This document shows, in pieces, positions 4,232 to 5,406 of a stretch of DNA of 64,000 bases; the first letter of the stretch is position 1, and every line of letters begins with the position of its first letter. Origin of the DNA: Escherichia coli. GTDB taxonomy: Bacteria; Pseudomonadota; Gammaproteobacteria; Enterobacterales; Enterobacteriaceae. The notes under the pieces were generated by a model. That model ran no database searches, had not been told where the DNA came from, and saw only the letters and a program-made list of their open reading frames with translations. The stretch lies in the NCBI RefSeq assembly GCF_016026235.1, contig NZ_CP065613.1, one strand, 5' to 3'. The position numbers were made by a program, and so were the translations under genes.

Positions 4232-5406
4232 TTATTTGTGACATTGTGGTTGTTGTGCGACAGACATTGCTATTCGGCCCATATCCCAGATAAAACCCGC
4301 CAGCTCACGTGCAACAGCAACAATTGTAATATTGACATTCTTTCCTTTGGCCTGAAGTTTTCGATACCTCTTACAAAGCCTGAGTTGAGCATCCCATGCT
4401 CTGTCAATGACGGGGCGGGGTAAATTTTCCTGCCTTTTTTGTATTGCCGGACTGATGCGTGCCGGATGACGGTAACTCCACGCTGCCTCGACCAATAGCT
4501 TTCTGGCATAGCTGTTTCCGGCTTTGGTAATGCTGCCCTGATGTCTGCTTCCACCCGATGAATATTCTGATGGCGTGATACCAAACCATGACATCAGTTG
4601 TCGTGGATGTTCAAAACGGGTCAGATCACCCAGTTCAGAAATTAATCCAACCGCAGTAATAAACTGAATCCCTCGCATGGCTTGCAGCGCCTCTACTACC
4701 GGATACAGCCTCCATTCGGTAACGGCCTCCTTCAGGGCGGATTCCAGCCGTTCACATTGTGCCTGCCGGTCTTCTATTGTACGACGGTGTTCGTCAAAAG
4801 CTAATTGTCGCCAGGGACTTTCGAATGAGTATTTGCTGAGCCAGCGTCGGTGTGCAGGGCCCCAATCTGCTCGCCCGACATAATGGACCCCATGAACCAG
4901 AAGAAACGATTTCAGACGTTGCCTTGCATGCCGTAAATCATCGCGGGCAGATGCCCATGCCCGGGCCAAATCCCGGAATGCCTCATCTTCAATGCTGGGT
5001 ACGTAGACAGCAGAAAGATCTCCTGCACGCAGTGAACGCACAAGTCTGATGGCATCACGGCGATCGGTTTTAACCCGCTCCCCCGGTTTTTCGGGATAAG
5101 TGAGGGGGCGCAGACCATGCAGTCAAAACCGGATTTCACCAGCCGACGATAAAGTCCATAACCACAGGGCCCCGCTTCATAAACGATACTGACCTGCGAT
5201 GACTTTGACCTGAGACGTTTACAAAGATTCTGAATATCAGTAGGTGATGTGCCAATTTTACCCATCAGTTCAACAGGTTCTGAATTGATAGCATAAGCGA
5301 CAGTAATCGATTCTTTGTGAACATCTAACCCGACGTACAATGTGTTATTGTTGTTCATGCTGGCCTCCGTGGTGGAAATACCGGGGTGTAGCAACAGCTC
5401 ACCCAT
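4232..5406 (-). pseudogene. IS110-family DEDD transposase split by a frameshift
   Basis: ORF 4912-5406 has the N-terminal YVGLDVHKESI RuvC-like motif; ORF 4232-5041 has the C-terminal Tnp domain ([24 protein letters not shown]). They overlap in different frames; the alternate frame reads [19 protein letters not shown] across the junction. Confidence 0.8.

Follow-up and report, generated by a model that had tools for sequence, protein, structure and literature searches.

A lost adenine probably leaves an ISSso6 copy beside nhaA in Escherichia coli without an active recombinase

When the gene of an IS110-family recombinase reads as two open reading frames (ORFs) that part at a short run of adenines, has the gene been broken by a deletion, are its two frames normally joined during expression, or has the run been miscounted in the assembly? 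This question is raised by a locus in the 64,000-nucleotide stretch of Escherichia coli DNA analysed here (the window; positions below are window positions, and the features are collected in Table 1). Frameshifted IS transposase genes are routine in Shigella and EIEC-type genomes, and annotation pipelines flag them automatically. IS110-family recombinases, for their part, are now of interest as RNA-guided genome-editing enzymes.

The 1.5 kb surrounding the split gene are 99.3-99.9% identical to copies annotated as 'IS110-like element ISSso6 family transposase' in complete E. coli genomes, and these annotated copies encode a single 375-aa protein, WP_001063816.1. Judged by this identity, the element is the known insertion sequence ISSso6 of the IS110 family, with a recombinase of the DEDD/RuvC plus Transposase_20 type; the family assignment made in the initial annotation holds, and both Pfam domains are found in the repaired protein. 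We mapped the ends by comparing nine ISSso6 copies at six loci (99.3-99.9% identity, ends consistent), which places the left end at 5488. A subterminal inverted repeat of 13-14 bp, (T)ATGACTTTCCGTG, is present, and the recombinase gene is flanked by about 130 nt upstream and about 267 nt downstream. A normal ISSso6 copy measures ~1524 nt; the window copy is 161 nt longer because its right end is duplicated. Mentions of ISSso6 in the literature were of the inventory type, and our search found no functional study of it.

The insertion adjoins nhaA, between that gene and the hokC/mokC region, and several E. coli genomes carry the element at the same nhaA site. Two sites without the element, one in the nhaA-hokC spacer of another E. 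coli and one at a second locus, have the sequence GTAAGCGC. Where the element is present, GTAAG precedes it and CGC follows, and AG is the only part that could belong to either junction. ISSso6 thus inserts site-specifically, apparently with AG as its core, in the manner of the IS110 family, which uses a short conserved core and leaves no conventional target duplication; the target entered here is its specific GTA-AG-CGC sequence.

Table 1. Coordinates of features of the ISSso6 copy in the window
Feature	Position	Strand	Description
Whole ISSso6 copy	about 3804..5488	-	left end GTAAGGCAGTATGACTTTCCGTG...; right end ...CACGGAAAGTCATATCAG
Right-end tandem duplication	3804..4125	-	two perfect copies of the element's last 161 nt; junction at AG common with the terminus
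Non-coding region, 267 nt, downstream of the recombinase gene (first right-end copy)	3965..4231	-	candidate seek/bridge RNA
C-terminal ORF	4232..5041	-	269 codons from GTG; coiled-coil region and Transposase_20 with SG motif; no DEDD residue
N-terminal fragment ORF	4912..5358	-	148 aa from the RefSeq-type ATG at 5358; 164 aa from the ATG at 5406
Lineage-specific substitution	4996..4996	-	coding-strand G to A, giving Ser for Gly in VPGIED
KTDRRDA codons (D99, D102)	5051..5071	-	now in the -1 frame; no ATG/GTG/TTG between the upstream stop 5123-5125 and the motif
Frameshift site: A5 run (T5 on the + strand)	5087..5091	-	codons K90-K91 of the 375-aa recombinase; A6 in intact ISSso6 copies

The sequence around the run bears out the frameshift that had been proposed from the letters of the window. 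The minus strand of 5041-5110 runs from CTT ATC into CCG AAA AAC CGG GGG AGC and then, by way of GGG TTA AAA CCG, to ATC GCC GTG. Aligned with three intact copies, it shows a single gap, A5 against A6 in all three, and one substitution, at 4996; this Gly-to-Ser change is shared by the closest relatives, whose gene is intact. Restoring A6 in silico yields a 375-aa protein with no interruption, as had been expected of one extra A. A mechanical listing of ORFs reproduces exactly the two that had been described, 4912..5406 (-) with 164 aa and 4232..5041 (-) with 269 aa from a GTG. The longer reading of the first, from the ATG at 5406, stands as an ORF and corresponds to the start used in the old Ss046 annotation (391 aa). 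RefSeq, however, starts the gene at the ATG at 5358, which a GGAGG precedes by 5 nt, and from there the true N-terminal product measures 148 aa. It retains D12 and E61 and then continues into a 58-residue out-of-frame tail ending in MQGNV.

Homologues of the split gene carry it as one ORF and not as a natural pair. The exact intact 375-aa protein is present on 697 contigs, and of the 49 records that contain the stretch among 5,426 complete E. coli genomes, none has A5. A6 is also found in intact copies at the same nhaA site, where A5 against A6 is the only indel. An identical 148-aa product (public protein P0001) nevertheless occurs in five other assemblies, labelled Shigella flexneri or E. 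coli. Three other loci harbour these A5 copies (ubiC-sopA, a tra/finO region and a phage tail region), and apart from the run each copy has 1-4 SNPs of its own. We looked for a derived SNP common to all A5 copies that would tell spread from recurrent deletion and found none, the copies being too similar.

The initial annotation had the break fall where the DEDD domain joins the Tnp domain. Pfam, run on the 391-aa form, assigns DEDD_Tnp_IS110 to residues 25-169 and Transposase_20 to residues 239-313, which together with the position of the break at K90/K91 puts it inside DEDD. On this domain assignment, the frameshift cuts the DEDD/RuvC-like catalytic domain itself and not its boundary with Tnp. 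The domain scores follow the same line: the repaired or intact protein matches PF01548 (E = 2.6e-11) and PF02371 (E = 8.2e-24), the C-terminal fragment matches PF02371 only (E = 4e-24), and the N-terminal fragment has no Pfam match, its DEDD score being gone. In 375-aa numbering the acidic tetrad is D12, E61, D99 and D102. Alignment to the IS621 recombinase sets KTDRRDA on KTDTVDA and equates D99/D102 with D102/D105 of IS621. The break thus lies between E61 and D99/D102, 8 codons ahead of KTDRRDA.

No start codon rescues the second half of the tetrad. After the stop at 5123-5125, the earliest start in the -1 frame is the GTG at 5041, and because this follows KTDRRDA, D99 and D102 belong to no ORF that has a start. 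We also considered a working split enzyme, as a break between two domains might permit; it is ruled out, the cut lying within the RuvC-like fold and D99/D102 in no start-bearing ORF.

We consider it likely that this ISSso6 copy, with one A lost from its A6 tract, is a non-autonomous pseudogene. One indel separates it from near-identical intact copies, and essential residues are missing from every ORF that could be translated. The A was most likely lost by replication slippage, or else the tract may have been converted from another A5 copy. From the normal ATG, translation would stop after 148 residues and provide only the first two catalytic residues, D12 and E61, leaving D99, D102 and the whole C-terminal serine-bearing domain in the -1 frame. 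No product with a complete active site would be made, because the sole start in the -1 frame lies past the D99/D102 motif. Read against the established mechanism of the IS110 family, the copy most likely lacks an active recombinase. Its ends, subterminal repeats and downstream non-coding region are unaltered, so it is conceivable that the recombinase of intact copies could mobilise or rearrange it in trans. For annotation, the locus is better described as one ISSso6 pseudogene than as two genes; such an A5 copy would supply no recombinase, may move in trans, and would still be a substrate for homologous rearrangement.

The two frames could also be read as a functional pair, fused as a matter of course by transcriptional slippage at the A run or by -1 ribosomal frameshifting, as in IS1, IS3 and the Shigella gene mxiE. 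It is true that the downstream ORF is in the -1 frame and that the two meet at an A-rich run, G_AAA_AAC; the IS1 and IS3 families employ such sites (PMC5009743), and IS elements exploit A9/T9 runs for transcriptional slippage (PMC1088944). We regard such programmed recoding as extremely improbable here. The two-ORF layout is not conserved, intact copies being single ORFs with A6, and the run is 5 nt long against the roughly 9 nt of the runs exploited in transcriptional slippage (PMC1088944). In the zero-frame heptamer G_AAA_AAC the first position is G, and the P-site Lys tRNA would be unable to re-pair; even A_AAA_AAC is far less shifty in E. coli than A_AAA_AAG (PMC5009743). Examination of the junction found neither an X_XXY_YYZ heptamer nor a homopolymer of ~9 nt or more, and no stimulatory structure or Shine-Dalgarno-like element at working distance around the A5 run; the sole predicted hairpin (5044-5022) is about 42 nt downstream, too distant to stimulate. 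A search for IS110 in the paper that names the IS1, IS3, IS5 and IS630 families for frameshifting found nothing (PMC5009743). Rescue by slippage at the homopolymer, which the initial annotation had allowed for, finds no support as a designed mechanism, with A5 too short, the layout unconserved and the heptamer poor.

Leakage of another kind is conceivable. In E. coli, unprogrammed -1 slippage can suppress the deletion of one base, with an aggregate rate of about 1% (PMC10861913), and the perfectly re-pairing tetramers C_CCC and G_GGG occur among the 17 codons where such a slip would leave D99/D102 in the product. A trace of near-full-length protein, about 1% or less, might arise by such suppression, and would be noise and not a mechanism.

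If the gene is a pseudogene, is the missing A a property of the genome or of its consensus sequence? The same rearranged locus is found in GCA_900449985.1, GCA_014155105.1 and GCA_031665325.1, each with A6 and an intact 375-aa gene, and the first two share the Ser substitution at 4996. Against GCA_900449985.1, the A run is the sole difference across 15,359 nt; against the three near-identical assemblies it is the only indel in 15-21 kb each. To go beyond 15 kb, an exact look-up of CaiC returned only genomes about 98.5% identical, and a look-up of IleS gave two closer relatives, with which the comparison was extended to window 24,753. A base at window 10433 is, over about 20 kb, the one substitution that sets the window apart from GCA_014155105.1, GCA_031665325.1 and a third relative, L034, all otherwise near-identical to it. 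At this locus, A5 is present in one sequence, and the sister assemblies have A6. With three A6 sister assemblies and no other indel, the A5 either arose very recently or reflects an error in the consensus of a repeated element.

Under the second of these, the genome would truly carry A6, and A5 would be a homopolymer miscall or a consensus or polishing error introduced by misplaced reads from other ISSso6 copies, some of which may be A5. Besides the agreement of the nearest relatives, this is favoured by the multi-copy state of ISSso6 in related genomes (13 chromosomal places in FDAARGOS_943, for example) and by the A5 copies that related assemblies hold at other loci. Yet a comparison of window 1-24753 with the nearest relatives finds only 1 of 108 homopolymer runs of at least 5 nt changed, so homopolymer errors are not widespread in the assembly; with the other 107 runs in the compared 24.7 kb unchanged, and a run of 5-6 nt being short for systematic error, an artefact seems unlikely. 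Against it, too, A5 and neighbouring frameshift alleles recur in independent assemblies, which makes a mutation biologically plausible. To judge from these public sequences, indel frameshifts in the ISSso6 recombinase gene are real and heritable, because the A5 product appears in 5 other assemblies and alleles of adjacent runs are found on up to 18 contigs. Weighing these points, we favour a real change over an artefact.

The alleles of adjacent runs lie close together. At least five indel alleles (C5 to C4, A6 to A5, CC to C, G5 to G4 and G5 to G7) fall within about 25 nt, in ISSso6 codons 84-95 (about 5075-5110; public proteins P0002-P0015), and some are found on 11-18 contigs, although the clustering is partly a matter of ascertainment, as the protein cluster that revealed the alleles admits only frameshifts near the A-run site. 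It is tempting to read C5-A6-C2-G5 as a hypermutable on/off tract, with A5 a revertible off state. Several of the clustered alleles are indeed on many contigs, A5 occurs at four different loci with nhaA among them, and near-identical isolates differ at the tract. We nonetheless hold a reversible switch to be very improbable. Apart from the ascertainment bias, true contingency tracts mutate much faster than runs of 5-6 nt, the off state occurs in no complete E. coli genome (0/49 records), and older decayed relatives (L036 and L037) have their indels elsewhere, with none at the A-run tract. As a pseudogene, the copy is a case of ordinary IS decay, the kind of thing already known, and the frameshift itself matters little.

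The right end of the element is a different matter. The 161-nt unit is present twice in the window, five times in GCA_014155105.1 (L019:11233-12039) and once in GCA_000805835.1, so that sister assemblies hold one, two or five copies. Duplications anchored at an end of ISSso6 also occur in two copies unrelated to that of the window. An ISSso6 copy on the VL40 pINV has a 339-nt right-end duplication (L014:2385-3062), and at the nhaA site of RMDEC465, 208 nt of left flank are duplicated, ending exactly at the left end (L015:1106-1521). All three duplication junctions have AG, AGC or TAAG in common with the terminus, that is, with the inferred core.

Because the junctions carry the AG, AGC or TAAG of the inferred AG core, their sequence suggests that the duplications may have arisen by recombinase exchange with pseudo-sites; the alternative is replication slippage at microhomology. 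If recombinase exchange is the source, RNA-guided IS110-type recombinases would create local copy-number variation besides insertions. A broader reading would join this to the indels, with C5-A6-C2-G5 as a stretch prone to recurrent slippage by which copies are turned off, and perhaps on again, in Shigella/EIEC lineages, and the terminus-anchored duplications, joined at the AG core to pseudo-sites, as a footprint of the recombinase. As a whole, we find this combination improbable. Of everything seen at this locus, only the end-anchored duplications might reward further study.

The region downstream of the recombinase gene may encode a guide. IS1111-type elements combine subterminal repeats with a long downstream non-coding region that yields a guide 'seekRNA' (PMC11187229), and the stretch at 3965-4231 (-) is a candidate guide RNA in the same order. 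It contains matches of 7-11 nt to the target and to the right end: CGTTAGCGCTT, whose reverse complement AAGCGCTAACG is the right half of the target; GACGTAAG, which corresponds to the left half; and ATATCAGCG, which matches the element's right end. An Rfam scan of 3000-6000 at a permissive threshold returned no bridge or seek RNA family, its only hit being an AfaR-like match outside the element, and a single-sequence fold of the downstream non-coding region was no better than shuffled sequences (z = -0.45). Relatives at 95-97% identity (H32 and H33) are decayed, truncated pseudogenes with indels elsewhere, and are unusable for covariation between guide and target. The AfaR-like match, at 3208-3434 (-), is weak (33 bits against a gathering score of 100, E = 0.0026) and overlaps the start of an IS3-type orfA remnant; it is probably a similarity to IS-end sequence and not a real AfaR gene.

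The DNA on the far side of the element has its own history. Window 1-3805 holds rbsK, a fucP-like permease, an aldose epimerase and the orfA remnant (84 aa), and is joined to the right end at ~3804. In FDAARGOS_943 this DNA sits about 125 kb from nhaA on the opposite strand, and in other E. coli it is contiguous with the PTS-ascorbate locus; the empty site in its counterpart has the same target, GTAAGCGC. The location 125 kb away on the opposite strand, together with the same empty target, marks the element as an inversion breakpoint, an arrangement common to at least seven public contigs. The inversion has two possible origins: homologous recombination between a pair of ISSso6 copies in inverted orientation, or action of the recombinase on GTAAGCGC. 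One breakpoint lies in the window and the other outside it.

How does this copy compare with systems already described? With ISSso6 of Shigella sonnei and enteroinvasive E. coli it shares the ends, the subterminal repeat and the nhaA insertion site, and differs in lacking one A of A6, in one Gly-to-Ser change and in the 161-nt right-end tandem duplication. The bridge-RNA recombinases of IS621 and ISCro4 (PDB 8WT6, 9T56) and the seekRNA elements of the IS1111/IS110 type (PMC11187229) have the same plan, a DEDD RuvC-like domain with a Transposase_20 Ser-Gly domain. IS621, ISCro4 and IS1111 also resemble ISSso6 in specific insertion at a short core and in a long non-coding region, and with the IS1111 type the likeness extends to subterminal inverted repeats and to the place of the non-coding region downstream of the gene (PMC11187229). 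Similarity in sequence to IS621 and ISCro4 is distant (E about 1e-5) and confined to the C-terminal domain, and the ISSso6 protein, at 375 aa, is longer than the 330-350 aa of the IS1111 type (PMC11187229). Unlike these elements, ISSso6 has a guide RNA that is only a candidate, and the recombinase of the window copy is broken.

Frameshifting in IS1 (A_AAA_AAC) and IS3, and slippage in mxiE (PMC5009743, PMC1088944), likewise involve two ORFs that overlap at an A run, the downstream one being in the -1 frame; the arrangement in the window differs in being a mutated single-ORF gene with a run of 5 nt, an imperfect heptamer and no stimulator in range. The closest parallel to the duplicated end may be offered by the modular minicircles of ISPpu9 (PMC12288879). 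Whereas the window presents, in sequence alone, a tandem array at the element's own right end, in ISPpu9 an IS110-family recombinase acts on alternative internal or neighbouring sites and so makes sub-element modules, with which the 161-nt module may be compared.
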